Shown here one piece after another: positions 6,288 to 41,000 of a stretch of 41,000 bases of DNA. Position numbers and translations under genes: made by a program. Below the pieces are notes generated by a model that made no database searches, had not been told where the DNA came from, and saw nothing but the letters and a program-made list of their open reading frames with translations. The stretch comes from Marsupella aquatica (Eukaryota > Plantae > Marchantiophyta): assembly GCA_973895155.1 (NCBI GenBank), contig OZ316891.1, positions 32,086,008 to 32,127,007 on the forward strand. Direction: 5' to 3'. Within the stretch, counting starts at the first letter, position 1, and each line of letters begins with the position of its first letter.

Positions 6288-6614
6288 TCTTTCTCTCGGA
6301 CGGCCACTAATGGGACTCGCCCTCCTGAGGAGGGATTTATTTAAAAAAAAACCCCCCCCTCTCCTGACTTTGCAATGGGGGTCTCAACAATAGCTCTTGA
6401 AGCAAAACGGTAAGTCCTATGGGGCTGGTCCTGGCTAGTTTCAAGGTCCCAAAATATTTGCCCACTTAGGTCGCCGCAAATCTTAGAACTATTATGAGAG
6501 AAAGAATATAAAGTCACCTGGGGCATCATCAACCTATAATGACGGAATTAACTAAAAATTAAAAAATGGCTTATTTACATTGACTATTAACAAGGTATCG
6601 GCCTTTGCAACCAG

Positions 6615-17037: not shown

Positions 17038-17400
17038 TCTTTCTCTCGGACGGCCACTAATGGGACTCGCCCTCCTGAGGAGGGATTTATTTAAAAAAAA
17101 ACCCCCCCCTCTCCTGACTTTGCAATGGGGGTCTCAACAATAGCTCTTGAAGCAAAACGGTAAGTCCTATGGGGCTGGTCCTGGCTAGTTTCAAGGTCCC
17201 AAAATATTTGCCCACTTAGGTCGCCGCAAATCTTAGAACTATTATGAGAGAAAGAATATAAAGTCACCTGGGGCATCATCAACCTATAATGACGGAATTA
17301 ACTAAAAATTAAAAAATGGCTTATTTACATTGACTATTAACAAGGTATCGGCCTTTGCAACCAGTTATGTGTGACTTCCCGTGACGGGGTACCCGTCACA

Positions 17401-18368
17401 CACAACCACAGAAAATAATTGAGTCTACGCCAGCCAAAGGAACTCCAGCAACTACGACGGAGACAGCACAAACTACTGCAACAACAACCATGGATAGAGC
17501 GGCAGGGAAGCGAAAGTAGAGGGAGAAGAAGCTTCTGGTTGAGAAACCTACTTCAGTTGAGAAGAAGATCACGGCTCCAGCCGAGAAGAAGAAGCTTCCA
17601 GCCGAGAAGAAGAAGCTTCCAGCCGAGAAGAAGTCGAGGGAGAAGAAGAAACAAAAAACCGACACCGGAGTTGTGAATTCAACTCCTATAGATTTTTCAT
17701 TACATGCTGAAGATGAGGGTGATAGGCCACATGCTCCAGAGGAGAAAGACGTCTTAGAAGGGAATGAAGTTCTTCAACAAATGGAGCAGTACTATACTTT
17801 TGGGATAAACGAAATTTTTCTGATCCCAGTTGAAAGTATTTTTGCCGCACCAGCGAGACTATGCTATCGGATGATGAATTTTGATCATGTGCAAGACATT
17901 GCTGATTCCATGATCAAAACACCTGGGCATGAGCCACATGTCGCTGATTTGATTCCTTTTAACGTCGAGCGAAGAAAGGTACTCCACTTTGAGAATACGG
18001 AGTCGGACCGGAAGGATTTTTTGGCCGGAGTGAAAAAGGGCGAGGTCCAATTTCTAGCCGTTAGTGGTCAGCACTCTGCGAGAGCTGCGAGATGGATTCG
18101 TGATTGGGCAACGAAGGATGCCAAGCTCACCCAGTTGGCCAAGAAGTTAGAATTCAGGAAATCCAGAATATTGTCTGATCGCACACCGTCTTCAATTCTT
18201 GTTGAGCACTCCATGAGATCAAACGCCATCAATAGCACGATGGTGTTTCAATCTTGCTTTAAAGATACAGTTGTCCATGCGAGGCGGCAGTTTGTTGAAT
18301 GTGGAAATCCAGACAAACCAAAACATGGCGACAACAAAACAAATGCTCAAGACAACCAAAAATTTCAG
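17401..18368 (+). CDS. Exon with Lys-rich repeats and a ParB/sulfiredoxin-like (GQH-type) domain
   Basis: The frame of ORF 17673 is open back to the LTR junction except TAG 17517. It contains PAEKKKL repeats and IPVESI...YRMMNFDHVQDIADSM...FLAVSGQHSARAA, and ends at donor CAG|GTAAGA. Confidence 0.7.
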
Positions 18369-18607
18369 GTAAGAAATGTGATTACTTTGTATGCATTTCT
18401 CTACCATAGAGAGTAATTCTATTTTGGATTCGGATGGTCTCAGTCCGACACGATTTGTCAAAGAGTATTGGAACTTTTGGAATGTTTAGTACGAGTTTTC
18501 TTTTTGATTGAGACCATCCGAATCCAATACTATTATCGCACATTAGAATCCTTTTTTTCCAACCCTTGCGTTGGGGATAACTGACTAGCTTTCCTTTTGG
18601 ATTGTAG
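18369..18607 (+). other. Phase-0 GT-AG intron containing a 22-bp inverted repeat
   Basis: GTAAGA donor, CTGAC branch-like site at 18581, pyrimidine tract and TGTAG acceptor. Joins NQKFQ|DWLAL in frame. Confidence 0.8.
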
Positions 18608-20910: not shown

Positions 20911-22301
20911 TGTGGTATGGGTGTCCCTGCAATTTTTTCTGGAAACTTGTTTATTTTTAGCATATCACAAGATTTACTTACACTTTAGACACCTTCCGGC
21001 CAACATTTACTTGTTCTGGACACTTATAGAAATATTTGACATCTCCGGCTTTCCTGACGATTCCTAGTGTACTTTGCCCGACGCTGTGACCAGCGCCCGT
21101 TTCTTTTACTCAAGACGCTGCGGAAGCGTCCAACCTCCTCATGACGCTTTTGGCAGCGCCCGACCGCCACCAAGACTCTATGAGGATTTCGACCGACGCT
21201 GTGGAAAGCGTCAGCTTCAACACACGACGTTGTGAGCAGCGTCCACCCTAGTATTGACGCTGTGAGCAGTGTGAGCAGCGTCCGTTGGTTTTACTTAAGA
21301 CGCTTCTAGCAGCGTCCAGATTCTCCCGACGCTTCTAGCAGCGTCCGCTCAACACTTAGTTTTTGAAGTAGATTACTAGTAAAGTAGTATTCTACCACCC
21401 TTGTTGAAGTACTTATGTTGTGCTTCTCCCTTGTTTAGTTTTAAGCTTGGAAAGGCACGACTGTTCTTACCTCCTCCATTTTAGGATTCCAACACTTATA
21501 AGACAGAGTAGAATGCTCATTTGAAGTAGAGAGAAATAGAGTTAATACTGTATTCAGAATTGAGTCTTCTGAATAGTTTTCTCCTCCTTCCATTGTAACA
21601 AGGCATGCTGTGAGTGTTTTGTATGGAAGTAAAGCTATATTGATTGAAGTTAAGATTGAATTCAAGAGATTCCTGTGGTGATTGAATTCAGTTGCAGATT
21701 TCTGAAACTCGTATTGAATTCACTGCTAGGCTTGCTTGCAGAGTCGGGATTCGCTAGCCAATTCAAGAATAGTTAATGATAAATGAGAAGTAAATTCTGA
21801 TTCTCAGAGTAGTTAGTACTGTTGCTTTGATTCTGGAATATGGTTTAGAGTTTGACTGAATTGTGTATCGCTGATGTCAAACCATGTTGACGGCATTTTA
21901 AATCATATCATTCATTTGCAATCAGAAAGCTTCTGCTTCATCAGATTGAGAATTCCATTATCATTAACCTTTGTGTTTTGAAGAGTGAGATGGATGAATT
22001 ATGAGATAGATTTCATGTCTATACTGAGCCCAAATCCTTTCTGAAGGAGTGGCAGTAGCAGCTTGTAGTCTCTAAATCCTTACTCATTTCTTCTCTAATT
22101 CATAAATCAGAAGTTCAGTTACTTTGTTGTTTGTTTATTCGATTTTTTTTATTGAGAAGTGAAGTCAACATAGAGCTCAAGACTCTAAATCACTCGGAGT
22201 GATAAAAGTTATACAATTCATTCTGAAATCTGTTCTTAAAGGGATCGAAACCCTGGTTTTAGGTGAGAAGAGTCACTTTTGATACTTAGCACTATACGAC
22301 A
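20911..22301 (+). repeat. 5' LTR of element C
   Basis: TGTGGTATGG...TACGACA, a direct repeat of 26044-27434. I saw three substitutions between the copies. Confidence 0.96.
21080..21345. repeat. Array of 8 GACGCT-N5/6-AGCGTC palindromic boxes in LTR C (also 26213-26478)
   Basis: Boxes start at 21080, 21114, 21143, 21195, 21226, 21256, 21299 and 21328. Confidence 0.9.
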
Positions 22302-22307
22302 TCTTTT

Positions 22308-22325
22308 TGGCGCCGCTGCCGGGGA
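22308..22325 (+). promoter_or_regulatory. Primer binding site of element C (tRNA-Asp type)
   Basis: TGGCGCCGCTGCCGGGGA after a 6-nt spacer from the LTR, identical to the PBS of A. Confidence 0.9.
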
Positions 22326-23296
22326 ACGAATTTAAGATTGAATTGACGTACAGGCAGTGTATGCCAGAAGGAGCTAGACGGGAGAGGAATTCACGTTCTA
22401 CTATAATTGTGAAGATGCGTCATCACTCCAGTTAAAAAGATGAAGAGCTTCCATTTCGAGGTGATGCCGTACTCTATCCAAAGCGCCCCGGAAGCTCTCT
22501 TAAGAGTATTGGAAAAATTTGTGGTGCCAAACTTAAGAGAAGAAACCGCCCTCCCACCAGAAAAGGCCTCACAGAGAGGAGCTGTTGCTCGTCAAGTTGC
22601 TTTGGAGATAGTCGAAGACACCAAAGACACTTTGAGTGACAAGTGAAGTTATTCTAACATTGCTCGGGACGTATGATTTGTAAAATTGTCCAACCATCCT
22701 GGTTCGTATGACCGATGCCACCTATCCGATCTTTGGGAACATTAAGAATTAGGAATTTGAGGAATCGTTATGTTAATTCTTGGGTTCTGAGCCTGAGAGG
22801 GAGGAATGGCATACATTGGTTAACTATCACCTGGTGGGAAGATGAAAGTTTGCATTTAGTAATATTAAGGCTGAATGGTAGGATCACACAGGAGAGATAT
22901 TTAGTCATTTCCATTCGGGAGTTAGCGGAAAGAATCATGCACCAGGAATTGCGTAGAAGATTAGGAAGGAGTTAGACGTCTGATTAGTAGGATGGCCTAG
23001 TGTAGCGTACCATGTGGTAAAGAAATTTCAGGGTGAAGGAAGTCGGAGATTATGGGGAACGCCCGGTTCCAGTAATCGCCACCGTAAAGGAGATAAGGAA
23101 GGACGCCGCGAAGAGCGTCCAATGCGATTCGTCCCAGAAGATTCCGCAAGTCAGGACGCTTCGAGTAGCGTCCGATCCCAGTGGACGCTGTGAGCAGCGT
23201 CCGGTGGAATCTGTGACGAACCAACGTGCGCAACGCTTCTGGTGTGCCTTTTCGCGTCTCAACCTGAAGGACGCACCAGAGAAAACGAGGTTTTAG

Positions 23297-25477
23297 AATC
23301 TCGGCTGGTCACTGAAGGGAAGTATTAGCTACGGGATAGCAAGGGGGAGGAATCATGCAAGGGATGTAGAACAGACGCAGTCTATCAATTGGACGAAGGT
23401 TTTGCACCGAGTAATTCATACTCAGGTCAAAAATTTTCGTAGCAGGCTGAAAACGGGGAAAATAAGGTGTACCTACTTGGCCCCTTATTTAGCTCACATT
23501 TACCATAAGTATGACTGTCTGATTGTCTTGGAAAAAGATTTTTATCGCAACAATCAGAGAGCATCTACCGGTGAAGCAAATTATATGCCTGAAGTACGAG
23601 AAGTCCGAGCCAATTCCACAGTGGTAGAGCTATGTGCAATACTCGACTGTGAGGAACCTGAACTGGTGGGTGAAGTTCGGAAATTGAAAGAGACAAGAGC
23701 ATCAGCTGAAGGGAGTGACGATCCGATTCTTCACCAACCAAGAGAGGCTCAAGTTGCCGAAGATGTTCCTTCAGCAATGCCAACAGGGTTGGAGCATTCT
23801 ATGTCACCTCGACTCTCGTGTTCACCTTGTGCTGCCGAGCCTATTTATGATGTTGATCAGGATAATTCTGCTTCTCGGATGAATGTTGAAGATGAGGTGA
23901 GGGTGGATGAAGAAGGTTTTTCAGGGGAACCTCTTCAACATTCTACTGCTGAGGACGAGTATGATGGATTTACTTCTACCCCTGTTTTGGTTCCCATAGA
24001 GGCAAATAGTGATGCTTTGCAGGCTTTACAGGAGTATGATTCGTCCGACTCTCTTAGTTCTAGCCCAAATATAGGTGAAATCCCTCTGGTCCAGGAGTCA
24101 GAAATATTAAGCTCAGAAATTGTGAAGCTGGTTAAAGTTGATTCGGAGGATGCAATTGTGGATATAGACGAAGTAGGTGAACCAGTGACTTCTCCCCAAT
24201 CTGTCGCAAGATACCCTGCCTGGTCTACACCTGGTTCACTCATATCGATTCCTTTGGATATAACTAAGGAATTAGATGAGGCAATAGCCGCGATAGGAGC
24301 TCCTTCATTTCCGCCTGTAAAATGGGTTTCTCCTGAAGATGAGTTGATTGAAGGAGGCTCTGCTGGTTTTCCGAGTCGCAATCAGGTATCTGGTAATATG
24401 GGTATATCTGTACCCATATTGGTACCCGAGACACCCGCTTCGACAACCAGCTCAGCACCAGTTTCATTGGCTACAAACGAGGATAAAAACATTCGGGAGG
24501 AGTTTTCAGTGACGTATACTCGAAAATCTTGGAAACGGTTGCGCCATGCTATCAGTCGACAGATCTTTCCTGAAGCATCTTCCCAGGATTTTGAACAGGG
24601 AGAAGCACCTATCGGAACAGACGAGCTACCCCTTCCTGTACTTTTGGCAGATCGAACTAACCAGGAAGTCTCTTTACCTAGCGATAATTTTAAAGAAGAA
24701 CTTCCTGTTTTAGTACCAATGCATCCCACTGCAGATCAACCAGCTACTGTTGCAAGAGAAGAATTTGAACCACTGGAGCCCGAACCTTCTGCTCCTTCGT
24801 CTCCTGTTACATTGCCAATTCGACCAGTTAAGGAGTCAGTGATTCCTTCCGCTATGCCAGATGTAATTTTCCGTTGGATAGGAGCACCAAGTGATGGAGA
24901 AGAAGACGAAGACCCTCGCATTATCAGAGTACCTCCTCGACTTCGGCATACAGTGGATTTGCCACCCCGAAATCCTATCCCTAATTTGGCTTCAATTCAC
25001 AGGTGGGAGAAGAAACATTTTCGAGTAGCTTTTCGACATCTGGAGATGGAGAGCATTTTGCAGCAGCAGCAGATTTTGCCAATGACATCCCATCCGAGGA
25101 TTCGTAGTTTGATTCGCACATATGAACCTGGGAAGGCGGTTCCTCCCATTGATAAGGACAGACGACATAAGTTTTCGGAGTTCGAAATTTGGTGTTGGGT
25201 GTATATGCTTCGACGAGCTCAAGCTCCATTTCCGCCCCTTGTGCCGGAAATTCCATGGCCCTATCCATACTATGTTTGGGTTTGTCCTGGTGGGTTTGCT
25301 ATTCCAATTAAATATGAGAAGAAGCTTGTTAAGCTAAGGGAGCAGTTGATTACAAAACAATGTATGCTACCGGCTTCCCAAGGGTTCAAGTCGCTTAGGT
25401 GTTTAGCGTTCCTACCTATTATTCCTTCTTATCCGGATGTGATTATTCAAGGTGTTTTATCTAGGACACAGATTTGA
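23297..25477 (+). CDS. Element C accessory ORF (>=691 aa, acidic/Pro-rich), 5' part probably decayed
   Basis: ORF 23402-25477 has no ATG at its start. The frame is open from 23297 and continues through TAG 23294-23296 into ORF 23033. Contains the motif INWTKVLH...YLAPYLAHIY. Confidence 0.65.
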   Translation, partial: NLGWSLKGSISYGIARGRNHARDVEQTQSINWTKVLHRVIHTQVKNFRSRLKTGKIRCTYLAPYLAHIYHKYDCLIVLEKDFYRNNQRASTGEANYMPEVREVRANSTVVELCAILDCEEPELVGEVRKLKETRASAEGSDDPILHQPREAQVAEDVPSAMPTGLEHSMSPRLSCSPCAAEPIYDVDQDNSASRMNVEDEVRVDEEGFSGEPLQHSTAEDEYDGFTSTPVLVPIEANSDALQALQEYDSSDSLSSSPNIGEIPLVQESEILSSEIVKLVKVDSEDAIVDIDEVGEPVTSPQSVARYPAWSTPGSLISIPLDITKELDEAIAAIGAPSFPPVKWVSPEDELIEGGSAGFPSRNQVSGNMGISVPILVPETPASTTSSAPVSLATNEDKNIREEFSVTYTRKSWKRLRHAISRQIFPEASSQDFEQGEAPIGTDELPLPVLLADRTNQEVSLPSDNFKEELPVLVPMHPTADQPATVAREEFEPLEPEPSAPSSPVTLPIRPVKESVIPSAMPDVIFRWIGAPSDGEEDEDPRIIRVPPRLRHTVDLPPRNPIPNLASIHRWEKKHFRVAFRHLEMESILQQQQILPMTSHPRIRSLIRTYEPGKAVPPIDKDRRHKFSEFEIWCWVYMLRRAQAPFPPLVPEIPWPYPYYVWVCPGGFAIPIKYEKKLVKLREQLITKQCMLPASQGFKSLRCLAFLPIIPSYPDVIIQGVLSRTQI

Positions 25478-25489
25478 AGGACACCATTT

Positions 25490-25966
25490 ATGAGAGATAT
25501 CAAACGGTGTTGTCATTTATATGTATATAAGCCGTTACTTTTGCAGCATCCTGCAATTGTTTCCTTCTTTCTCCTTCGAATTGATATTTATCTGCTCATG
25601 TGGGACATCAAAGCTACTATGGATTGTTGGAATTCTTTACCCCGTGCTTTCCAACATTCCTTTGAAGGCAAGATCAAACTGGGAGGACATGCTATTCAAC
25701 ACTTTGTTATTGATCCAGGCTCTCGAATTAATTTCCTCTCCCACAGACTGTGCCAGCAATTTGTTCATCAAGAAGTACAACCGATATCTGCTCAGATATC
25801 AATCGATGGACGAATCATTAATCTTTGGGGAAGAGTTAAAGGAGTCCCAATACAGATCGGAGAAGAATTCCATGACCTCGATTTTTATATTCTGGATTCG
25901 GATATCTCCCAACTCCCGTCAATGATTTTGAGCACTACTTGGATTATTAAGCCAGAATATTATTAA
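25490..25966 (+). CDS. Retroviral-type aspartic-protease-like ORF (158 aa)
   Basis: FVIDPGSRINFLS...IDGR...GRVKGVPIQIG...DFYILD...MILSTTWI follows the retropepsin pattern with DPG in place of D[ST]G. Confidence 0.7.
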   Translation: MRDIKRCCHLYVYKPLLLQHPAIVSFFLLRIDIYLLMWDIKATMDCWNSLPRAFQHSFEGKIKLGGHAIQHFVIDPGSRINFLSHRLCQQFVHQEVQPISAQISIDGRIINLWGRVKGVPIQIGEEFHDLDFYILDSDISQLPSMILSTTWIIKPEYY

Positions 25967-26028
25967 TGAAGAACATGTCACTCGCTTCTGATTCAATTCG
26001 GTCATGTCTTGTGGGGACACGGCGAAAT

Positions 26029-26043
26029 TTAAGTGGAGGGCTA
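26029..26043 (+). promoter_or_regulatory. Polypurine tract of element C
   Basis: TTAAGTGGAGGGCTA directly before the 3' LTR TG. Confidence 0.85.
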
Positions 26044-27434
26044 TGTGGTATGGGTGTCCCTGCAATTTTTTCTGGAAACTTGTTTATTTTTAGCATATCA
26101 CAAGATTTACTTACACTTTAGACACCTTCCGGCCAACATTTACTTGTTCTGGACACTTATAGAAATATTTGACATCTCCGGCTTTCCTGACGATTCCTAG
26201 TGTACTTTGCCCGACGCTGTGACCAGCGCCCGTTTCTTTTACTCAAGACGCTGCGGAAGCGTCCAACCTCCTCATGACGCTTTTGGCAGCGCCCGACCGC
26301 CACCAAGACTCTATGAGGATTTCGACCGACGCTGTGGAAAGCGTCAGCTTCAACACACGACGCTGTGAGCAGCGTCCACCCTAGTATTGACGCTGTGAGC
26401 AGTGTGAGCAGCGTCCGTTGGTTTTACTTAAGACGCTTCTAGCAGCGTCCAGATTCTCCCGACGCTTCTAGCAGCATCCGCTCAACACTTAGTTTTTGAA
26501 GTAGATTACTAGTAAAGTAGTATTCTACCACCCTTGTTGAAGTACTTATGCTGTGCTTCTCCCTTGTTTAGTTTTAAGCTTGGAAAGGCACGACTGTTCT
26601 TACCTCCTCCATTTTAGGATTCCAACACTTATAAGACAGAGTAGAATGCTCATTTGAAGTAGAGAGAAATAGAGTTAATACTGTATTCAGAATTGAGTCT
26701 TCTGAATAGTTTTCTCCTCCTTCCATTGTAACAAGGCATGCTGTGAGTGTTTTGTATGGAAGTAAAGCTATATTGATTGAAGTTAAGATTGAATTCAAGA
26801 GATTCCTGTGGTGATTGAATTCAGTTGCAGATTTCTGAAACTCGTATTGAATTCACTGCTAGGCTTGCTTGCAGAGTCGGGATTCGCTAGCCAATTCAAG
26901 AATAGTTAATGATAAATGAGAAGTAAATTCTGATTCTCAGAGTAGTTAGTACTGTTGCTTTGATTCTGGAATATGGTTTAGAGTTTGACTGAATTGTGTA
27001 TCGCTGATGTCAAACCATGTTGACGGCATTTTAAATCATATCATTCATTTGCAATCAGAAAGCTTCTGCTTCATCAGATTGAGAATTCCATTATCATTAA
27101 CCTTTGTGTTTTGAAGAGTGAGATGGATGAATTATGAGATAGATTTCATGTCTATACTGAGCCCAAATCCTTTCTGAAGGAGTGGCAGTAGCAGCTTGTA
27201 GTCTCTAAATCCTTACTCATTTCTTCTCTAATTCATAAATCAGAAGTTCAGTTACTTTGTTGTTTGTTTATTCGATTTTTTTTATTGAGAAGTGAAGTCA
27301 ACATAGAGCTCAAGACTCTAAATCACTCGGAGTGATAAAAGTTATACAATTCATTCTGAAATCTGTTCTTAAAGGGATCGAAACCCTGGTTTTAGGTGAG
27401 AAGAGTCACTTTTGATACTTAGCACTATACGACA
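26044..27434 (+). repeat. 3' LTR of element C
   Basis: Direct repeat of 20911-22301, followed by TSD TCAGA. Confidence 0.96.
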
Positions 27435-27573: not shown

Positions 27574-27633
27574 AATGCGGTCAGCAATTAGAGCCTCGAT
27601 ATCCACCTACGCTCTTTGGGGCTTCTAAAAATG
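27574..27633 (+). CDS. Putative 60-nt internal exon (ECGQQLEPRYPPTLFGASKN)
   Basis: Flanked by TCTCACAG| and |GTATGT, phase 1 on both sides, compatible with both neighbours. Confidence 0.5.
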
Positions 27634-27748
27634 GTATGTAGGTTTTCTTTGTTGTTAGTCATTGTCTTGTATTTTTGGACTGAGACAATCTCAGTCCAAA
27701 GTTCAAATTTGGTTTTCTTTCTAAGAGTTGTATTTGTTGCACTTGCAG

Positions 27749-28785
27749 AATCGAGACCTTGTCCCATCAAGCGGAAGTTGCTGATTTTGGATCTTAACAA
27801 AATACTTTGGGATTCACTTGAATTCCAAAGCAAGGGCAAATCCAGAAACATTGTGACCCCAAATGGAGTGCATTGGGATAGATCAAATGGAACTAGTCGC
27901 ATGTATACACAGAGGCCAGGGTTCCATGAGTTTCTAAAGTTGGTTTTTGACCGGTTTGACGTTGCAATTTGGACATGTGCTGGGATGCCGCGGACAGTGA
28001 AAATGTTGAACATGATGTTCACTGTTGAGGAGCGGTTGAAACTGAAGTTTGTATTCACACAGGTGGAAGCCTTTGACACAGGCATTCAAAGGCGTGACAT
28101 TACAAATGGAAAGGCAAATGTGCTATTGAAGGATTTTCGGGTGGTATGGAGTGCATTTGGAAATCTATATGATGAAACCAACACACTCCTTGTGGATGAC
28201 TCCCCCTTGAAGGCATTTGCCAACCCAGACATGACCGGACTATTTCCAGTGCCCTACACGCATGCCAATCGTGGAGACAATTTTCTTCTAACAATTCTTT
28301 GGCCATGTCTTGAGAAACTGTCACATGCAAGTGACATTCGTTGTTATCTTCTCCTAAACTCTCCAAAGTGGTCTCTATTGCACATTAAGAGAGACAAGGC
28401 AAAAAATGAGATTACTTATGATCAACTTAGTAAGAGATGTGCAGCAAAAATTTGGAAGTCACAGTATAGGCATAGTGTGTTGGACCTCAATAGCAATGAG
28501 ATTCCTTGGGCTGTGAAGCACCGTATATGTAGCTTACGTCCTGAGGTGGAACTTGACGATGCACTTGTCACCTCACTTGCTAGATCATTTGTAGGACGGG
28601 AATATTCAGGTCTTTATAGAGAAAATCCCAGACACTTTTTGCGGGAGATTATAGCAGTTAGGAACAACACCACCAAATTTCATCTCCCTGAAGATAAAGG
28701 GAGTTGCAACCGTGACATTAGGGTAGATAGTAAAGGAGACAAGGGCACGTGCTCAAATAAATATTGTAAGGAGCACTTTGTTTAG
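27749..28785 (+). CDS. Terminal exon: FCP1/SCP (NIF) HAD-superfamily phosphatase-like domain
   Basis: KLLILDLNKIL...RPGFHEFLKLVFDRFDVAIWT...LLKD...NTLLVDDSP. The acceptor TTGCAG ends at 27748. Confidence 0.85.
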
Positions 28786-29176: not shown

Positions 29177-30059
29177 ATGGCCACCTCAGCCCCGGGTAAT
29201 GTCACCCCCGCCCCAGAGGAGGCAACCCCGACTACGCGGACTACTGTCCCTCGGACAAACCCCGAGCCGGAAGCCCCGACTAATACTCCGCAACCGCCCC
29301 CTGTGGAAATTCCACCGCCTCCTTCCGTTGAGCCTCCGCTACCTGCAGTACAACCACCCCCAATCCCTCCACCACCTGAAGAAACCTTCCCCTCCCCAGC
29401 GCTGACTACGGAGGAGCTCATTGCCCCTGCCGAGGAACCACCGGTACCCGAGAGGATGGAGGACTACCAAGTAGCCCCGGGGACCATGGCCTACGACCTG
29501 GTCCAGAAGTTTAGCCAGACTATGTCTGGGGAGTTGGCGACATACATCGGACAACAAGTCTCGGCGTACTTTCAGCCAGCCTTCTTCATGTTAGAGCACC
29601 AACCACGGATCGTCAGCCGCTTGGAAGAAGAACTCATGGCGAAGGGGAATGAGATCGGGCGTCTCCAGATGCTGGTAGAGCACCTCGAGGAGGAGGCAAC
29701 GACCCGCCGCGAGGATTTAGTCCGCACTGTCGAACAGAGGGACGGACTAACCCAGGAGTTAAGCGGAGCGCAGGCCCAACTCAAGAAGCTGGACGACACC
29801 ATGCTTCAATTACGCTCAGAATCTTCGGCTCGGGTTACCAGCCTGACTGACCTCAACAAACAATTCCTGCAGGCAGCACAGCAGGTGGCTAGTCTCTCCG
29901 CCGAACGAGATAAATTGCTAGCGCAAGACCAGGTCCATCGCGATGCCATCGACCAGCTCAACTTGGAGGTGGCGCGGCTCCAGACTGAAGCCGACGAAGC
30001 TGCAAACGAGGCGGAGGAAGCATTACGGGACAACAAGGCTTTGCAGGACCGCGTCACCC
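29177..30059 (+). pseudogene. Pro-rich + coiled-coil ORF fragment (D), probably another retroelement accessory ORF, interrupted by element B
   Basis: GC-rich ORF starting abruptly after AT-rich DNA. Its last ~38 aa are read-through into LTR B, which starts at 30060. Confidence 0.55.
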
Positions 30060-33000
30060 TGTGGTGCGTCCCATGGCTCCCTAAACCCAAGAAACCCCCC
30101 AGCTCAAGCCGATTCCCGCAGGTTTCGTGCTTGGCGAGGCCGTTTCCGCGGCTTAGCGGCATGGGACGCTGCTAACCTTCTACTACTACTATTAACATTT
30201 TACACACATATACTGGACAGATCCTTCATCGGGTCATGAGATACGTAGCCGGCCTAATATAGGCCTTCCCCTGTCTTCCCCTGTCTTCCCCTCCGTCTTG
30301 TTAGGTATGTTTGGATTCCGCCGCCGGAATGATCCCCAATAGGCTTGGTTAAGCCGCTAAGACCTCTCTCAGCTCGACACATCCAACTCTCACTCCCCTG
30401 CTTACTTTCCTTCCTTCTGTTGATGTGGGCACTCTTCACACAAGTTAATGCGACACACAAATAGCAAAATGACTCATTCTGACTGAGTCATACCATGCAC
30501 TTGCCATACAAACAGTACATCTCATACACAAGTTCTGCGAACTAAGCCGTGAGGCCAACTCTATTCAGCTCTTAGGCATGAGGAAACATGAATATACACA
30601 AGGGTCACTGTATGACTAACCGAGAGCTTCTCGTACTACTTGATCCCAGCCCGGCTGGTGCAAACTAAAAACTTGCTAAAGAAGAGGCCCTGAGCTCCCC
30701 GCTGCCCAGGTACTTATCCTGGTAGTGGATCCACCATTCTTTGCATCGTAAGCCTAATCTACTTAATAGTAATCTACTTGCCCGAATCTACCTATGTACA
30801 ACAAGGCAGGAGCACAAGTGTTGCTCCTACCAGTGGGACCGCGATCCCACTAAGCTAAGTGTCAGGGCCGCTCCTGGTTCTGATCCTAATCCTAAACGTG
30901 GAGATCCGCGCCCGCCCTGCCCACTCACGCCTCCTCCCTCCACGTCCGCCCTCCCTAAAAGGAACGGCGCCCTTGCACCGTCACGACACCGGTGGTGGAT
31001 CCTTAATGGACGCCCCCAACGCTTCCTCCTCAGCCACTGCCGTAGGTTCATTCTCTGAAAGATTACCTGCCCTTGACTGAGTCAACTCTCCATCGGCCTC
31101 ACTGGGTCCACCTTCGGCTTCAGCCTCGACACCGGCCTCGGCAATACCCACGGCTTCGGCCTCAGCCACTCCCACGGCTTCGGCTTCAGCCACTCCCTCG
31201 GCTTCGGCCTCCCCTTCCCCTAGGGTAGTTGGATCCTTAGCCGTGACCCTGTCTGGGGTCGGTGCTGGGTCTACCTCCTTGATCACCACGGCCTGTGAAG
31301 TCGTATTACTCCTTGACCCTGAAGGTTTCCGCTTCTTCTTCGTTGGTGGCTCGACAGCTGGTCCCTTCCCCTTCCCACTTACTTCCGGCACTGGTGTAGT
31401 TGGCGCGGCTTGTCCTTCGGCAATTACCACCCCTGGTAACTGGTTTGTCCCAACGGGAGATGGACCTGCTGCAGCTAAGCATTTAAATACTGCGGCTTGT
31501 TTCTTCAGCCGCTCTGTTTGGTTGTCGGCCCGCCGCTGTAGGTTCTCCATCTTCCTCGTGATTTCCTCCAACTCCTCTTGGGTTTCATCCAGGTCCTTAC
31601 GTGCCCCCTCCAGCTCGTTTTTGGCCTCCTCCTGCTCCCTGTGGGCTTCCTCCAATTCCTTCTTCAAGGTAGCCCTCTCCTCCTGGGTTGCTCTTAGCTC
31701 CTTGTCGAGCTCTGCAATGATGACAGACTCCATCTGGTTCATCTTGGCGTAAGTCTGTTCGAGCATCTCGTCCTTCTCCCTTAGGTCGGCCTTGAAGCTG
31801 GCCGTCAGGGACGCAAGCTCCTGCTGCAGCGCCATAATCCCTTGATAGGATTTCCCTAACTCGACCTCCTTCTGCTCAAGGGCTCCGCGGATTTTCTCGA
31901 GCTCCCCTTTCAACGCCCATTCCTTTCTTTGGGTCTCCGCCATGGCCCGGCTGTTGGCTGTTATGTGGGCCTCCTCTGTATTCTTCAGCTCTTGCTTCCA
32001 CTTCTCCCTCTCTTTGATCGTGTCGGCCAACTCTCCTTGCGTCTGAGTTAGTTTATCCTTGATATTCTGATTATCAGCCTGCGCGGTGTCCAACTGCCCT
32101 TGCATGATGTTCAGCTCATGTCGTTTAATCCGCAGTTCATCTTGGGCTTTCTTGGCCGCCCTTAGATCTTCAATCTCGGCTTCCATCCTCCTAAGCCGCC
32201 GAATGACCTCGTCCTTCTTGCTTCTCTCTAAAGCCACCGCTTCTTCTAATTGGTGCTTCTCCAACTGCTCCCTATGGAAAAAGGGTCCTACCTCCAACTC
32301 CTCTCCAAAGATGCCGAGCGCAAGTTCCCCACACATCTCACCATACTCCATGGCTCTATTCTTAGCGTAGGTGGAGTAAGTAGAAGTGATCGGCATCGCC
32401 CATCGTGGCCTCTGCTCCCAAGCCGTCCTGCGGATCTCTTCAATCGTGGCTAGAGGTTTGCTTCCTTTTTCGGCTAGCCGCCTGATGTCCTCCGGCCAAT
32501 CTCCTCCTGGTAAATCCTTTTCCTTAGCCAGGGCGGCCTCTTCCTCCTGCTTGATTCGCTCCTGAAATTCCTGCACCGTCTATTTTATGCCGTCGAAGCT
32601 CGGGGGAGCAACATCTGGTGGGGGAGACTCAGGGCTACTCTGCTGGTTGGGGTCCCCTCGCACTACCCTTGGAAGTGTGGGGACAAACCGGCCACAGGTC
32701 CTTACTCCTGGAACGTGATGGTCCGACCCATAGCCGGAATTATCATGGCTGCAGTCCTCCACTGCCTCCTCTACCTCTTGGACGTCCAGCTTCTCCCTCT
32801 CCTCTTCGTCGGTAGGAGCTTCAGGCAATTCTGCCTCAGATTCGGAGCTTGAGGTTCCCACGTACATTCGAACACCTGGCTTGGATTCCGGCCTGATTCT
32901 CTCCTTGTCTCCAGCAAAGGGGTTTTCTCTTGTGAGCCGGTGTAGGCCTACCTCTGTAGTAGTGTCCTGCATTGTTGCCGTTGCCGTTGTTGTTGCCGAT

Positions 33001-34719
33001 GCCGATTTCTTTTCTTTCTCCAGTAGTTTCAGCAGACTCTGCATGCCTGGTTGCTGCATCGGCAAGTCTTCCTTCCTGGGCCTAAACACCTGCTCGATCA
33101 TAGGACTAACAGGTGGTTGAGGCTTCTCAGCCAACGGCCTCGGCGTTGGAGCTTCCTCGGGTGCCCTTACCTGCAGGGGAAGTACCGGGGCAAAAGTCTG
33201 ACCTCTGGCATACCGGCACAACAGCGGCATGTGATAGCCAAGCCGCGACACGCTCCCCATGCCGATTACCTGCTGTTCCTCCTTTAAGATCTTCTTCAAT
33301 TGGTTGAGGAGGTACCCGTTGTAGTCCCGGCTTGGGTCTGGCCTTTCTGCCAGATAGACCTGTGCCTTGCCGATCTCTGCCCTCGGCAAGTTACAATGCA
33401 TGGTCACCCGCAAGAAGTCGATCATCTCTCCTATGTGCGGGTTGGTGCAGGTGTTCCGGAAGAAGCCATTCTTCGTTGATGGCCCGGGGAACGACCGGAA
33501 CTCCTTGTCAGGCAGGGTCTTCCTGGTATCAACTTTGGTCTTATTGCCTATCGGCAAGCCAAACACTTCGGCAATTACCTTGGGAGTAAGATAGAAATCC
33601 TTCCCATATATCCTCGTGCAATTGGTCTCGGGTTCCCATGACCCCACGAATTCTAATAGGTCTGACTCCGGTACCTCCGGCTTCAGCCATGGTAATCTTA
33701 CAAAGGCCTCCAAGTCGGATCCGGCCATGAAGCCTTGGTACTTCTTGGTCTGCATGGCCGTAAAGCATGCATCCTCCTCCCGTGCAAAATGTAGTTGCAC
33801 CTCCACCGGTAGGGTTGCCGCCCAGCCCTTCCAGGTGTCATCCCTGGTTGGAATGGCCTTGATGGGATCGACCTCCTCCTCTTCGGCTTCTCCCTGCCTC
33901 CTGCTCTGCTGCTCGGCTGGCCTCTTTGGTGCCGCCGACCTCGTTCTTTTTGCCGGGGTGGCTTCATCGTTGACGGCCCCCTTCCTCTTCATCTCTGCTG
34001 CCGTGGAGGTTTCTCCTAGCACCGTTGCCTGGGTCCACCTTTCCGTGCTACCCTTTAATTCCCAGTGTATGTCGTTGCAGTTCTTGATGGCCCCTCGGAT
34101 GCCGACGACGCTGTCTTTGCAAAACAGAAGATCGTCGAGTTGATTGGAAGTAGGCGTCCACAGGAACTCATCCTTGATGAGTTCGCCTCCTAAGAAAGCC
34201 GTCTTCTGCAGCTCCCACAATCGAGCGAGCTCCTGCCGTTCTCGAGCTGCCCTTTCTGACTCCTCGTCCTCGTAAGTCTTGATGTACTCAGTTGCCCGTT
34301 CGAACAGGCATCCCCAGAAATGTGCCGCTTGATTGACGTTGCTCATACCCTCCTTAGGTCGATCGTCGGTATCTACTCTCTCCCCGAGTGCTTGCCTAAG
34401 CAGCTGACAGTAGTTGGCCTCCCGTAGTTGTCTGCCTAGTTCGTGCTCGCAAATGAGCCACCATCTCCTGCAAGCGCTCCTTACCCCTCTCCTCTGCCGG
34501 TCCTTCTTCCCGTTGATCCTTCCTAGCCGCCGACGCTTAACGCGCCCTAACCCTAATCGGGTTTTCACCCTCAGCCTTACCTCCGGCCTCTGCCCGGGTT
34601 CCATGGTTGCCCCTAATTGTTTATATTTTCCTTGTTTTGTCCCTATACTAAGGTGTTCCTAGGGTGCCTTCCTGCTTTACCCACTTAACCGGCCGAGTGA
34701 TTCCTATCTAGGCATCACA
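30060..34719 (-). repeat. 3' LTR of element B (4660 bp)
   Basis: Minus strand starts TGTGAT at 34719 right after the PPT and ends CCACA at 30060. Only 632 bp of the partner LTR are visible, so the inner boundary rests on the PPT. Confidence 0.85.
30981..34604 (-). pseudogene. ~1207-codon accessory ORF inside LTR B, split by one TAG
   Basis: ORFs 32580-34604 and 30981-32576 are in frame, and TAG 32580-32582 is CAG in B'. Contains GKDFYLTPKVIAEVFGLPIG and a ~250-aa coiled coil. Confidence 0.85.
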
Positions 34720-37700
34720 TAGCTCCCCACTTAATTGTGAAGCGTCCTCGCGAACAACTTCATCTTCGTCCATATAGTATTTCTTGAGGCGGTCATAATG
34801 GATGCGAACTGGATATACCTCTCCCGTAATGTTGGCCAATTGTACGGAGCCATTGGGGAACATCATGGTTACTCTAAAGGGTCCTAACCAGCGAGTGTAA
34901 AGCTTTCCTGGAAACCTACTATACCTACTGTCATAAAGTAGCACAAGATCACCGGTATGAATACTAACTACTGTTAACCTTTTATCATACTGCTGCTTCA
35001 TGATATTCTGTCTATATTCTACTCTCTCGGCTGAAATCATTCTCGCTTCCTCTAAAGCTTCTAACCTATATTCTCGCTCCTTTAGGCTCTCCTCCGCTGA
35101 GGCTCTTTCCTCAATTGTAACTTGAAATGTCGGTATCTCAAGTTGCATGGGTACCAGGGCTTCTTGTCCAAAGGTTAAGAAGAAGGGTGTATGACCGGTA
35201 GTGGATTTATAGGCAAGATTGTAAGCAAAAACAGCAGCAAACAATTTATCATCCCAATCGAGTTTGTTCTGAGCTACTGTCTTGTTCAATATCTTTCCTA
35301 TGATTCCGTTTGCTCGTTCTGTCAACCCGTTTGCCTTTGGATGGTAGGGAGTAGTAGGCCTATGTTTAACTAAATACTACTCATTTAAACGACTAATTAT
35401 ATCATTCAAAAAATGGGTTCCTCTATCACTAACTAATTCTAGGGGTGCTCCATACCTGGTGAAGATCTGCTCATACATGAATCTAGCCGTAGTAATTGCA
35501 TCATCCTTCGTTGTTGGTCTGGCCTCTACCCATTTAGTTGCATAATCCGTAGCCAGGATTATGTACTTGTTCCGTCGAGGGTGGGTCAGTGGTTTCAGAG
35601 GTCCAATGTAATCAATACCCCACTTCTCGAATGGTGCCAGAGGTAGAATAGGGTGCAGTGGATGCCTGGTGGACGCCCTTGGTCCTCCCGCTCGTTGACA
35701 AGGATCGCATTGTTTGATAAACTGATAGACATCTTTGTGCAAGGTGGGCCACCAGTAACCGGCATTTAATATCTTCTTAGACGTGGTTACTAGGGAAAAA
35801 TGTCCTCCGGCCTCCTCTCCATGCATGGCCCGTAGGACTCGTTTTACCTCTCTCTTTTCCAAACATCTTTGAATCGTGCCGTTGATTCCATGCTTGTGCA
35901 GTATGCCTTTAATGCACTGATACTGTCTGACCTTCCGCACAAAGACTGCGGCTTGCTCTCGGCTTAATCCTGGCTGTAATCTGGAAGTGCTGAGAAATTG
36001 TAAAATCTCAGGGTACCATGTACCAGCTATTTCCACAACGAATAGCTCCTCGTCGGGGAATCGATCATCGATGCAATCCGTGGCAGGTTTACCTGTGATC
36101 CTTGAAAAGAAGTCGGCATTGGCATGTAACTTTCCCGGCTTGATCCTCAGCTCATAGTCAAACTCCTGTAATAGCAAAATCCATCTTGCTACTCTGCCTG
36201 TAAGGTCCGGCTTATTGACTAGGTACTTCAAACTTTCATGATCAGTATGAAAGATTACCTTGTACCCTAGTAAATAATGCCTAAAATTTTTACAAGAATA
36301 AATGACTCCTAATGCTTCTCTTTCCGTGGTAGAGTAGTTCCGTTCGGCATCGGCAAGCTGACGGCTTGCGAAGTATATGGGATGGTCCCTTCCTTTCTCA
36401 TCCAACTGACTTAGTACTGAGCCAATACAGAAGCCCAAGACATCTACAAAAACATGAAAATCTTTGTTCCAGTCCGGTGCTATCATGACTGGGGCCTCTA
36501 CTAACATCTGCTTCAATTCTACCACCGCTGTGACTCGTTCGGGCGTGGGTTCGAAGTCTGCTCCTGCCTTGAGCATATTGGTTAATGGTAAAGCCAGCTT
36601 GGAAAAATCCTTGATGAACCGGCGATAGTAACCAATGCATCCCAAGAAGGATCTTACATCCTTTATGTTCTTAGGTTGCATGATATCTAGCCATACTGCT
36701 AGCTTACCTTTGTCAATCTCAATGCCCTTCCTTGATACCTTGTGACCTAGTAGCACCCCCTCGGTTACTGCAAAAAAACATTTATCTGGGTGTAACTTGA
36801 GACCCACCTCTCTACATCTCATGAAGGTTTTCCTGAGGTATTTAGCATGTTTGGTGACTCCATGCAAACACATCCTGAAATTCAATCAATAAGTCACTGA
36901 TCTCTTTCTCGAGCTCAGGTGCTAGGTTTCTCCCTAAGTTCAGTTCTCTTCCCTCTCCTAAGTCGAGCTTCCGATATTGCCGTGCTTGGATCATATTAAT
37001 CTGCTTCTTCAAATTTGGGTCCAGTTCGGCTTCCAGTCTCTCTAATCTCATACCTCCATAAACTGGGATCTCGGCTGGACTAGCCGAGTCGGTCCCTTCC
37101 TTGGTGTCCATAGATTGTCCCCTTACCGGTCTATTTGGTTTTGAATTAGTGGTCGGCTCCCCTTCCTGCCTTGGCTCTGGATCGTGTCTGTCCATCTCAT
37201 CCACTTCTTGCTCCTGAGAGTTAGGCCGCTGTGCTCTCTCGGCTTCTAATAGGGCCTCAATTTGTTCTGCCCTCGTAATCGGCTTGTATGCCGATCCCTT
37301 GGTATTTAATTCCTTGCCGATGATCGATGGCGTTGTGGACCCCGTCGGCTCTGCCACAACGCCTGCAGAAAATCCACTGTCCCTGCTACTGCTCCCCACT
37401 TAGCCGTTTCATCCAATTGGTCTACATCCTTTACTTCCTCCGGAATTGCAGCTAAAAAGGTGGATTCTATTGTAAAGCAGTCCTCGACCTCTTCGTCTTC
37501 TTCTTCCAAGTCACCTTCCATTGGTTCTTGCCATAATCCGCTGGGGGGTACCTCTGGTCCAAAGACACCTTCTTCGGTTAGGTTAGTGAGGCATTCTACC
37601 CAACGTACTTCATCGGCTGACTCCAGTCCACTATCGTACCCATCTACTTCCCTTATGCTTTTCCTACGGTCATCCTTAGTGTCCCAGGATACCGTGATAG

Positions 37701-40299
37701 AGGGGGTCCCGAAAGTGAACTGCTTTTTACCCCAATCTTCTATTACCTCGGCTAGGTACAGCCATGGCCTACCAATCAATAGCCGGAATGACGTAGGATT
37801 TACCGGCTTCATTACTACATAGTTAATGCTAAAGAAGATACCTCCTATCTCTGTCTTGATGCCGGTTAACACTCCCGTCGGAATGACCTGATATCCATTG
37901 GCCATGTTCAACACTCTTCCAGTCATCTCCGGTGTTAGACCCCACCCTTTTGCTGTTGAATCAATCATAATACATACCCCTGATCCTCCATCGATGGGTA
38001 CCCATAGTAATAATTCTCCTTGAATCATTAATGGTAATGCTGGGGCTCCTTGATCTTCTTCTATCATTAGTACGTCGGATCTGGTTGCTACCTTGGGTAA
38101 TCTCGGCTTGCCGAGAATAGCCTTCCTTAATTGCTTCCGGAAGTACGGGCTATTTTTCAATAGTTGACCTACTGTTGCCGAGACTCTAGATTCTAGTACA
38201 TCTTTAGCCAGGTCATAGGGAACAATCGGCTTCTCTTCTGGTGGTGTTTCCGTCTTGGATTCGGCCAGTTTTGCCACGCTAGTCTCCACAGCTGTTGGGT
38301 CTTCCGAAGCAAACAATGCTTTTGCTCATTTTACATCCTTGGCAATGGCTTCGGTATTCTCCAGGGTTTCTAATTCTCTTAGTTGTTCCTTAACACTAGC
38401 CGTAACAGAGGGGTAGAACAACTTAGGATGATCTCGATTGAAGTCGCTATCTTGTGAAGGATTGGTTTCACTGGTGGGCTCATGGCTTACCTGTATTGCC
38501 GGAGCCCTCCCTTCTCCTTCTGTTGATGTTGACGAAGAGTCGATCCTTTCCTCCGTAACCTTCCCTTTATTTTTGGCCAGCCCATCCCACCTTTCCTTCC
38601 TTCTGGTAGATCGAGTAGAGACCCGGTAGCAATCATGATCTAAATCCTCCTCTGAGAAGGTTGATAGGGCTTCGGCCTCATCATCAGATGGTACGAACTC
38701 TGCCTCGGCATCCTCTTGCCATCCTAGTTCGATGTGGTTGATTTGAACTCCTCCGGGGGTAGTACCTGGCGGTAAGATCTTGATCGGCAAAAGCTTATGA
38801 TTTGCGGCCAGGCCTGCCAACCAAGTAGGACATTGCCCTAGCATATGACCTTCCTGTCGGCATCCCATACATAGCTGAGCTGGTTGTCCATCACCCTGTT
38901 TGCGTGCATTCGGGCATTCTCTAGCAAAATGGCCAGGTTGACCACAATTATAGCACGCCGCAAATCTTTGCACATTCGGCCTAGGAGGTACTGACGGGTT
39001 CTGAATAATCCGAGGATACATCTCTACTGGATTGTTCCTTAACCCTGACCACAGAGATGCAGGTCTGTTGGATAGGTCTCGTGCTCCAGTCTCACTGATG
39101 CCGAAAACACTATCAGCGGCATCTCCCAAAAAGTACTCTACTTCTCCCTGACATGGTCTGATCTCGGCCACATGCCGAACATGATTAGTATTAAGCTTAG
39201 GACACGCATCTTTATGGTGTCCGGTTTTATAACATAAGGCACACCATACAGAGCTATCCTCCTGTACTACCTTCTTCTTTGGTTTTACCTCTGCAATGAT
39301 AGCCTTAAGTTGCTCGGTAAGGGCTACGATGTTATCTGGTGGCTTAGCCTCCATCTTGACTTTCGTCTTCCCTCTCCTTCTGCCCTTCCTTTTCCTAGTT
39401 TTTTCTTCTTCAGAACTAGAAGATGACTCACTCTTGCTACTCCCACTATCCGAGCTTGACTTATCACTTCTAGACTTCTTGGGATGTTTCTTCTTCTTAT
39501 CTTTTTTCTTATGGGGTGATCCCTCCTCTGATGAGGAACTCTCAGACTTAAGCTGTTTCTTCCGGCTTGTGATATCTGCATTAATGTATAATTGAATATC
39601 CTTAATTGCTTCGGCTAAAGTCTCCGGGTTCTCCTTCCTAATTGCAAAACTCATCTTCTGTGGCAAAGCATTCACCAACCATTGAAGTTGCATACCTTCA
39701 GATGCATTGGTCTTTGTACGTCTTACCAGTTTCTGAAAGCGTTGCAAGAACTTCCTGAAGGATTTGTTCTCCTTGAACCGAAGTTGTCCCAACTTCAGCA
39801 CTGCTAGTTCTGAAGTTCCAATGGGTCGAAACTCCTTAACAAAGAGTGTTTTGAAGATATCCCAGATGGCTTGATCTTCCACATCTAATGCTCTGTACCA
39901 AGGCCTAGCCTCACCCTTGAACAGGCCGGGAAGAATCTGCATCTTGATGGCCGATTCTCCATTTGCTGCAGCGGTTCCCTCGAAATCATCCAACCATTCG
40001 TCCGGATCCTCATCTCCTCTCCCATGAAATGCCTTGTAATGTATGCGCGACCGCTGGCTCAATCTGGTCCCTGGCCTCTCGTCTGGCCGTGCCTCTGGTT
40101 CCCCCATGTCGGTTGGAGACTCACTTCTCCTTACCGACTCTTCTTCTGGTATGTCTTCTTCGACGCCACTTCCAGTTTCGGAGCTACCAGCTCTTTCTGC
40201 CCCTCTCAGTCGCTGTGTATCATGCCACCCGGCGAGCTGCTGCAGTCGAGCTCTCTCCCGTTGAATCACTCTTTCTTCCCTCGGCGTAAGGTCAGTCAT
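34708..40299 (-). pseudogene. gag-pol: Decayed gag-pol of element B
   Basis: Gag with three CCHC knuckles, in-frame TGA 38326, protease IDGGSG, frameshift near 37310-37400, RT core deleted at 36852, RNase H, and integrase with in-frame TAG 35377. Confidence 0.93.
34720..34734 (-). promoter_or_regulatory. Polypurine tract of element B
   Basis: Minus strand TTAAGTGGGGAGCTA then TG, in the same position at the integrase end as in A. Confidence 0.85.
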
Positions 40300-40345: not shown

Positions 40346-40364
40346 CCCCCTCCATCTAGCGCCA
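40346..40364 (-). promoter_or_regulatory. Primer binding site of element B (primer unassigned)
   Basis: Minus strand TGGCGCTAGATGGAGGGGG after a 4-nt spacer from the LTR end. Confidence 0.7.
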
Positions 40365-40368
40365 AAAA

Positions 40369-41000
40369 TGTGGTGCGTCCCATGGCTCCCTAAACCCAAG
40401 AAACCCCCCAGCTCAAGCCGATTCCCGCAAGTTTCGTGCTTGGCGAGGCCGTTTCCGCGGCTTAGCGGCATGGGACGCTGCTAACCTTCTACTACTACTA
40501 TTAACATTTTACACACATATACTGGACAGATCCTTCATCGGGTCATGAGATACGTAGCCGGCCTAATATAGGCCTTCCCCTGTCTTCCCCTGTCTTCCCC
40601 TCCGTCTTGTTAGGTATGTTTGGATTCCGTCGCCGGAATGATCCCCAATAGGCTTGGTTAAGCCGCTAAGACCTCTCTCAGCTCGACACATCCAACTCTC
40701 ACTCCCCTGCTTACTTTCCTTCCTTCTGTTGATGTGGGCACTCTTCACACAAGTTAATGCGACACACAAATAGCAAAATGACTCATTCTGACTGAGTCAT
40801 ACCATGCACTTGCCATACAAACAGTACATCTCATACACAAGTTCTGCGAACTAAGCCGTGAGGCCAACTCTATTCAGCTCTTAGGCATGAGGAAACATGA
40901 ATATACACAAGGGTCACTGTATGACTAACCGAGAGCTTCTCGTACTACTTGATCCCAGCCCGGCTGGTGCAAACTAAAAACTTGCTAAAGAAGAGGCCCT
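40369..41000 (-). repeat. 5' LTR of element B (partial)
   Basis: Matches 30060-30691, with two substitutions seen. Confidence 0.93.

Follow-up and report, generated by a model that had tools for sequence, protein, structure and literature searches.

Plant long terminal repeats (LTRs) are treated as non-coding regulatory DNA. In the accessible parts of PMC6317226 and PMC7264820, extra open reading frames (ORFs) are placed up- or downstream of gag-pol, and the available portion of PMC11728184 describes a 3' ORF with PF20167 and a predicted nuclear localisation signal in sunflower Athila. No plant element with an ORF inside its LTR was found in the literature within our reach, outside of which lay most subscription papers and single-element lists. 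The stretch analysed here, referred to as the window, is 41,000 nt of DNA from Marsupella aquatica (Marchantiophyta; assembly GCA_973895155.1, contig OZ316891.1, positions 32,086,008-32,127,007, forward strand), and it contains several nested elements: B with a fragment, B', and the elements A and C. On balance, we favour reading B as a decayed non-chromovirus Ty3/gypsy retrotransposon with a 3' LTR that very likely starts at position 34719 and so holds an accessory gene that once functioned. The gene probably belongs to the PF20167/ATHILA ORF-1 group and would be copied into both LTRs.

The 3' LTR of B (30060-34719, minus strand, 4660 bp) has its 3' end fixed by a repeat: positions 30060-30691 match 40369-41000, the final 632 bp of the 5' LTR (minus strand), in 630 of 632 bases, leaving two differences. 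Since the 5' LTR exits the window after these 632 bp and continues past its edge, the full length is deduced from a start at 34719; an LTR of 4.66 kb spanning 34719-30060 is nevertheless very probable. The segment starts with TGTGATG and ends with CACCACA, termini that are nearly inverted, and is followed by GGGTG. On the plus strand this flank reads CACCC (30055-30059), the expected half of a 5-bp target-site duplication (TSD), and it is here that B splits a plus-strand frame starting at 29177. A primer-binding site (PBS) is located 4 nt past the 5' LTR (40347-40364, minus strand). The region for gag, protease, reverse transcriptase, RNase H and integrase (gag-PR-RT-RH-INT; 34708-40299, minus strand) has decayed, with stops, frame changes and 573 nt of RT gone relative to B'. 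The same domain order was recognised with Pfam in A and in the pieces of B which, together with the PBS and a polypurine tract (PPT), identifies both as Ty3/gypsy elements; A measures 14,882 bp, and 14,969 bp is predicted for B. The integrase frame of B ends at 34708, 12 nt within the 4660-bp segment, and the pre-LTR motif with the PPT occupies 34720-34739 (minus strand), a motif common to A and C and shared more loosely by a metagenome locus, L001. An initial annotation of the segment had placed the PPT at the integrase end. Its position and its homology to A and C agree with this, but the purine tract ahead of 34719 is modest, and it was recognised via homology and not by purine content.

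Element A carries an ORF in both of its LTRs. Its 3' LTR (2519-6650, minus strand, 4132 bp) contains an intact 618-codon ORF at 3630-5486, and its 5' LTR (13269-17400, minus strand), which has 1 difference in 4132 positions, contains the copy at 14380-16236, with the PBS at 13248. Both LTRs start with TGTGAC, directly behind the integrase end, and end with GTGACA before the PBS. This only direct example is weakened by its having no TSD, as the flanks are TTGTG (2514-2518) and CTTAC (17401-17405), with B' on one outer side and unrelated DNA on the other; A is therefore probably a recombinant of two A insertions. GC-rich tandem arrays of 47-bp and 64-bp units were also observed in the A LTRs (5822-6311 and 16572-17061), upstream of the ORF and followed by a pyrimidine-rich stretch, and are candidate binding sites or a candidate promoter of the LTR gene.

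To locate the LTR start of B, a 24-column matrix was trained on A and C only, each of which has its two LTRs within the window (and C a TSD besides), B being excluded. The score at 34719 was 31.2 bits, equal to that of the training sites, and the runner-up among 81,952 positions reached 13.1 bits. An alignment of the pol ends of A and B puts 6650 on 34719, and over the 31 nt around the junction the two elements are identical at 27 positions, against 66% for pol DNA overall. The boundary at 34719, and hence the presence of the ORF within the LTR of B, is well supported by these comparisons, although indirectly. It could be argued instead that the ORF is internal, a 3' extra ORF of the ordinary kind, and that only the last 0.7-0.9 kb, beginning somewhere past the stop at 30981 and reaching 30060, is LTR, as in Athila. 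Just 632 bp of repeat is visible, a purine-rich stretch followed by TG occurs at 30927/30923, just behind the ORF, and homologous ORFs are internal in two seed-plant Athila-type loci (L002 and L007) and in C. We consider this arrangement improbable, given that the best site within 34718-30060 reaches 7.5 bits, as compared with 31.2 at 34719, and that 34719 is homologous to the proven LTR start of A. What tells against an LTR-borne ORF in B is that the copy of the ORF expected in the 5' LTR would lie beyond position 41000, outside the window, as would the other half of the TSD.

Fragment B' (1258-2518, minus strand) is a second copy of codons 339-758 that is 98.5% identical to 32330-33590 and lies 5' of a pol piece at 1-1235. 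The ORF-pol junction holds a 22-nt filler (1236-1257) in which 12-nt units are repeated locally, the kind of sequence that break repair would leave. The position of the ORF 5' of pol had been cited earlier as expected of an ORF that is part of both LTRs, and that position was confirmed; it carries less weight than claimed, because the junction fits a deletion from a 5' LTR but could equally have arisen by deletion between tandem elements, so that B' fits an internal ORF equally well.

A metagenome scan gave 80 listed loci, 14 of which were checked for ORFs and repeats, and among the 80 L001 was the sole close relative, its pol being 58% identical to that of A. It has a similar motif followed by TGTGG approximately 50 nt past the pol stop, and there it sits outside the reading frame, which suggests a cis signal. 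In L001 a TATAAA is found 461 nt after the putative LTR start, followed by a 606-codon sense ORF; the contig stops before any LTR end. The 6190-bp terminal repeat of L002 (1-6190 and 12557-18746), which holds a 1267-codon ORF, was considered as a third LTR-borne case and rejected. The repeat has no TG..CA ends and no PBS behind it, a real LTR of approximately 1.4 kb follows the ORF, and the termini, PPT and PBS mark the ORF as a normal internal one; the repeat probably reflects overlap in the assembly or an Athila-type element present in tandem. The case counts against the reading as well, as a warning that a long repeat at both ends, even one with an ORF in it, may be something other than an LTR.

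The accessory frame of B (30981-34604, minus strand) runs from an ATG at 34604 to a TGA at 30981 and comprises 1207 codons plus the stop. At 3624 nt it makes up 77.8% of the 4660-bp segment, and it begins 115 nt after 34719, as had been noted. The length and the fraction (given as about 1207 codons and about 78% of a 4.66-kb LTR) held, with the qualifications that the LTR length is deduced and that one in-frame stop at codon 675 (32580-32582, minus strand) divides the frame into stop-free runs of 692 and 532 codons. In B' the frame is interrupted elsewhere, at codon 505; since neither copy has a stop at the position where the other does, an ancestral form was probably continuous. When the 4660 bp were shuffled 500 times with dinucleotides preserved, the longest stop-free run was 363 codons, so that 532 was never reached, and the five other frames contain 23-58 stops, compared with the 1 internal stop of the accessory frame. 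Judged from its sequence, the frame is a real gene. Over 420 codons, B and B' differ by 10 synonymous, 7 non-synonymous and 2 stop differences, 18 of the 19 being transitions, and the synonymous excess is not significant after allowing for transitions (p 0.07-0.11, all 19 counted), a point that speaks against the gene. Purifying selection on the ORF, suggested at first by this comparison, was lost after the transition correction. In pol, 8 of 10 differences between B and B' were synonymous (p 0.004).

A TATAAA at 34620-34625 (minus strand), 95 nt into the LTR, is a possible promoter of the accessory gene. It is too near the ATG at 34604, which it precedes by 21 nt, and fits a second in-frame ATG at 34346. 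The context of the ATG at 34604 is good, and the first 100 codons of the frame have an atypical base pattern. Because of this pattern and the short distance from the TATAAA, the true start may be the ATG at 34346 (codon 87). A TATA-like word at 30255-30262 (minus strand), approximately 200 nt before the LTR end, is a candidate promoter of the genomic RNA. Both words are matches to a consensus only. Two words near the start of the B LTR (34549-34555 and 33810-33816, minus strand) resemble telo-boxes.

The predicted B protein consists, in order, of approximately 250 residues for which no relatives were found, a globular domain, a linker of low complexity, a coiled coil, a basic cluster and, at the end, a tail of acidic repeats. 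The conserved globular domain (residues 248-471; 33192-33863, minus strand) is remotely PF20167/ATHILA ORF-1-like. The coiled coil is predicted at residues 806-1050 approximately (31455-32189, minus strand), where heptad power is 6.0-9.5 times background and proline is almost absent, and the basic cluster KKKRK (residues 1089-1093; 31326-31340, minus strand) is a possible nuclear localisation signal. No membrane helix was found in the B or the A protein, the highest 19-residue Kyte-Doolittle means being 0.98 (B) and 1.09 (A).

Relatives of the domain were recovered by a full HMMER scan and not by word-based searches, which gave zero matches both for residues 60-500 of the B ORF (target lengths 663-2113) and for an alignment of the A and B domains (target lengths 423-2000). 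The scan profile was made of two sequences, the B domain and the L001 domain (L001 3158-3820), and matched at least 405 proteins at E<=0.001. Among the 150 matches listed, 3 were nearer B and 147 nearer L001. The three B relatives show 39-42% identity, the best giving 41% identity and E 1e-56 over residues 248-471. No matches were found in viral contigs for the B domain or the A pol (8 distant loci were found there for the pol alignment), and two scans of prokaryote genome contigs gave zero matches.

The link from the B domain to PF20167 was followed through a chain of profiles. A profile of L001 and 139 matches picked by L001 alone scored the B domain at 9.9 bits, compared with at most 3.5 bits in 200 shuffles, and hhalign aligned the B family with the L001 family over 109 columns (probability 89%, E 2.3e-6). 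The L001 family in turn aligned over 155 columns (E 5.7e-4) with 3' ORFs that three Athila-type loci of seed plants carry internally, and one of these ORFs, that of L007, matches PF20167 (E 3.2e-7). In the Atlas the L001 domain lies beside PF20167 clusters (22 of 30 matches, 0.90) and a PF03078 cluster (0.89), where scores are uncalibrated for protein parts. Several results weigh against this link. The search that gathered the L001 family used a profile that included B, and the L007 match, at 30.9 bits, is below the curated cut-off of 45. PF20167 was matched by 1 of 117 L001-family members (E 0.005), a direct comparison of B with the Athila profile was weak (E 0.014-0.048), Pfam gave no match for the whole B protein (E<=1) or for its domain (E<=10), and the Atlas gave no usable match for the B domain. 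Kinship of the B domain to PF20167/ATHILA ORF-1 is likely on the strength of this chain, the links of which lie below threshold.

The initial annotation had pointed to a motif beginning EFVGSW, which is present in the B protein, and had likened it to plant mobile domain and putative plant transposon domains (PF10536/PF20167). The PF20167 half of this likeness is borne out through the profile chain, in the absence of a direct Pfam hit, while PF10536 had no match in B or in 40 of the 150 listed search matches (E<=0.01) and is absent among 25 of the 86 Pfam families listed for the 117 L001-family members. The same annotation saw an SMC-like coiled coil (structural maintenance of chromosomes). The heptad signal agrees with a coiled coil, and nothing specific to SMC was seen: beyond that signal there are only sub-threshold matches to coiled-coil Pfam families, neither the ATPase head nor the hinge was found, and an SMC protein was rejected.

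For the L001 domain, AlphaFold gave a model with a pLDDT of 96.5, for which neither PDB nor BFVD held a match at E<=0.001; the L001-type family, to which most of the 405 matches belong, is covered by no Pfam model at cut-off. The model of the B domain, built from 6 sequences, was poor (pLDDT 45.6), so that its fold search is meaningless, and a PDB sequence search found matches in the coiled-coil region only.

These relatives also bear on whether the frame could be a captured passenger or relic of no use to the element. Neither of the visible copies is intact, the excess of synonymous changes between them falls short of significance, and the A LTR ORF is not detectably related. On the other side, relatives are approximately 40% identical over the whole domain, the family counts at least 405 proteins with a confidently modelled L001 domain, and each copy of the frame is open where the other is stopped, which together make a passenger very improbable.

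As to function, we suggest tentatively, and by analogy, that the protein was a soluble nuclear factor that acted on the element's own chromatin or LTR, most likely by countering silencing or by raising transcription, and that could be supplied in trans, solo LTRs included. This suggestion follows from the absence of a membrane helix, the basic clusters, the combination of a globular domain with a coiled-coil oligomeriser, and the nuclear location predicted for the sunflower Athila ORF with PF20167 (PMC11728184); what tells against it is that no structural relative was found, which leaves analogy as the basis. A structural or transport factor encoded by the same LTR-borne gene, such as a particle chaperone, a helper of cell-to-cell movement or nuclear import, or an env-like protein, seems a less likely choice. 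The long coiled coil would suit a scaffold, and such roles have been proposed for sense 3' ORFs in the accessible part of PMC7264820, whereas the protein has several basic clusters and no transmembrane segment, which led us to reject an env-like protein in particular. According to the part of PMC5418596 available, plant mobile domain proteins of the host act in silencing, which would suit a chromatin regulator better, though the B domain gave no match to PF10536.

Within the LTR the accessory gene probably lies in U3, a placement deduced from the TATA-like word approximately 200 nt before the LTR end and from the 3' position of its relatives. The gene would have come into both LTRs because the plus-strand primer site is upstream, and not downstream, of an Athila-type 3' accessory gene. 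Two PPTs in Athila were reportedly described by Wright and Voytas in 2002. With the ORF in U3, the genomic RNA would read gag-pol-ORF, as in an Athila with a 3' sense ORF, and only the priming site would differ. The plus-strand strong-stop DNA would then be 4.7 kb long, and every integrated copy, as well as every solo LTR, would hold the whole gene. A promoter within a few hundred bases of the LTR start would drive its expression, or else a spliced or read-through RNA would serve. Transcription might instead start near the beginning of the 4.66-kb LTR, which would put the ORF in R or U5 and make it the first one of the genomic RNA. It would then be comparable to the extra ORFs at the 5' side in Ogre or Retrosat2, with gag expressed by splicing or reinitiation. 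The sole exact TATAAA of the LTR, at 34625 and 95 nt from its start, points that way, as do the TATAAA of L001 at 461 nt and the absence of AATAAA from the B LTR. That layout would require a minus-strand strong-stop DNA of more than 4 kb and leaves aside both the TATA-like word near the LTR end and the location of the domain's relatives 3' of pol in Athila; we regard it as unlikely and retain the U3 placement.

The comparison of A, B and C indicates how far the arrangement extends. The initial annotation had claimed the same design in A and B, with LTRs that share no obvious sequence and homologous gag-pol proteins. The latter statement was confirmed: at E<=0.1, blastn aligned nothing in the sense orientation between the LTRs of A and B and just one stretch of 25 nt in antisense (E 0.056), as compared with pol proteins that are 64% identical over RT-RH-INT. 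The ORFs share their position, and the A LTR protein has a layout similar to that of the B protein, but BLASTP, shuffles, HMM comparison and hhalign found no homology between the two, so that the common design is borne out for position only.

Element C (20911-27434, plus strand) has 1391-bp LTRs (20911-22301 and 26044-27434) with 3 differences in 1391 positions, a TSD of TCAGA and no LTR frame of more than 92 codons. No RT or INT was found in it, and C is a young non-autonomous element. It carries the PPT motif of A and B and the PBS of A, and residues 26-88 of its internal 726-codon frame (23297-25477) match the L001-family profile at 28.7 bits. Since C has the same signals, short LTRs free of ORFs and a piece of the domain in its internal region, the LTR slot is not fixed across the lineage. 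LTR-borne genes had been proposed as the mark of an entire Gypsy lineage; direct observation in A, indirect evidence in B and a suggestive case in L001 go some way towards this, but with C, which keeps a piece of the domain internally, the claim goes too far. By eye, an antisense frame of C (25478-25966) looks like a piece of a retroviral-type protease.

Other features surround these elements. The region 17520-21067 (plus strand) has two frames of an unrelated unit, possibly the cargo of a DNA transposon; the second weakly matches the DNA methylase family PF01555 (E 3.3e-5, below cut-off), and C splits the frame 18629-21067. At 27631-28785 (plus strand) there is an intronless NIF-type phosphatase-like frame (PF03031, E 3.1e-15) in repeat-rich DNA. 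The plus-strand frame that is split by B (29177-30059) is proline-rich and then coiled-coil, has a third-position GC content (GC3) of 0.64, as in the LTR ORFs, and may be the accessory gene of another element.

The closest relatives of the pol proteins are metagenome proteins, with up to 81% identity over part of the sequence and 74% over all of it, and the closest named relative covering most of the query is a protein of the liverwort Riccia sorocarpa (58% identity). A quick tree was made from 51 rows, consisting of 35 of the 120 listed pol matches, 13 of 88 loci, and A, B and B'; P0065 was left out, being too short. In this tree, which has an open backbone and no REXdb references, the seed-plant Athila-type clade (100) excludes A and B; these two are placed together with L001 (99) and with Riccia rows (95-97). 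No Pfam match to an additional RNase H or a chromodomain was found in the 2132-aa polyprotein of A or in the pieces of B. The PBS of A and C is one base off that of the seed-plant Athila-type loci L002, L007 and L008, and a 5-bp TSD was seen only in C. We take the PBS of A and C to be complementary to tRNA-Asp and that of B to tRNA-Asn.

If this reading is correct, an Athila-type accessory gene, known but unexplained, sits inside the LTR in a non-seed-plant lineage, and LTRs of 4-5 kb would be explained by a shift of the priming site that leaves the RNA content unchanged. Strong-stop DNA of more than 4 kb would be possible in reverse transcription, and solo LTRs, which are what the removal of an element usually leaves behind, would carry the full gene. 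Because the gene comes with its own boundaries, it would offer a clean way to probe the function of the PF20167/ATHILA ORF-1 group, although the value of B itself is limited, this copy being dead and the function of its protein assigned by analogy. More speculatively, and with considerable doubt, there could be an undescribed non-seed-plant branch of Ty3/gypsy in which the plus-strand primer site has shifted to the integrase end, making the LTR a self-contained cassette of promoter, a 600-1200-codon Athila-ORF1-like regulator and terminator. Its solo LTRs would be dispersed, trans-acting anti-silencing or transactivator genes that outlive the element and aid non-autonomous relatives, and its families would fill the slot with different or fast-diverging proteins.

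Several described systems can be compared with B. Retroviral ORFs in or overlapping U3, such as MMTV sag, HIV nef and foamy-virus bel2, are likewise copied into both LTRs, and animal retrovirus LTRs are under approximately 2 kb. These ORFs have no sequence relation to that of B, where the coding part measures 3.6 kb and takes up 78% of the LTR. Among plant elements, Tat I-III, Ogre and Retand were rejected, as no Pfam match to their additional RNase H was found. The Tat Z1/Z2 elements, a candidate affiliation compared by description only, resemble B in being non-chromovirus elements of non-flowering land plants with no additional RNase H, but an LTR-borne ORF goes unmentioned in the accessible text of PMC10508981. 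Phygy, in the available part of PMC6317226, is also a non-chromovirus of non-seed plants with a polyprotein that fills nearly the whole internal part. It is listed there at 7.7-10 kb, with a 4-bp NCGN TSD, a mostly tRNA-Trp PBS and no extra ORF; it was rejected, A and B being approximately 15 kb long and having an extra ORF, and C having a 5-bp TSD. Retrosat2/RIRE3 with ORF0 (PMC3485330) and Ogre with PF10536 ORFs (PMC6317226) share with B an LTR of more than 3 kb and a large extra ORF of unknown function, but in the accessible parts of these papers the ORF is described up- or downstream of gag-pol and not in the LTR. Retrosat2 is moreover a chromovirus, which B is not, and the PF10536 of Ogre had no match in B.

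The closest described system is Athila. Shared with it are the lack of a match to an additional RNase H or a chromodomain, the single gag-pol frame (in A), the 5-bp TSD (in C) and, as far as PMC6317226 and PMC11728184 are accessible, an ORF that follows pol in the sense direction and has a domain of remote kinship. The Athila PBS (for tRNA-Asp or tRNA-Asn) and 5-bp TSD given in additional file 5 of PMC6317226 resemble those found here. The extra-ORF columns of that file appear shifted for Athila. B works like an Athila, and its affiliation is best put as Athila-like. In the quick tree, A and B are placed apart from the clade of seed-plant Athila rows, and the internal region is almost only gag-pol. 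In Athila the ORF is located between pol and the 3' LTR, and the Athila-type loci L002 and L007 show the order pol, ORF, PPT and short LTR, whereas A, and by extension B, have the primer site ahead of the ORF, in the order pol, PPT and an ORF within a long LTR.

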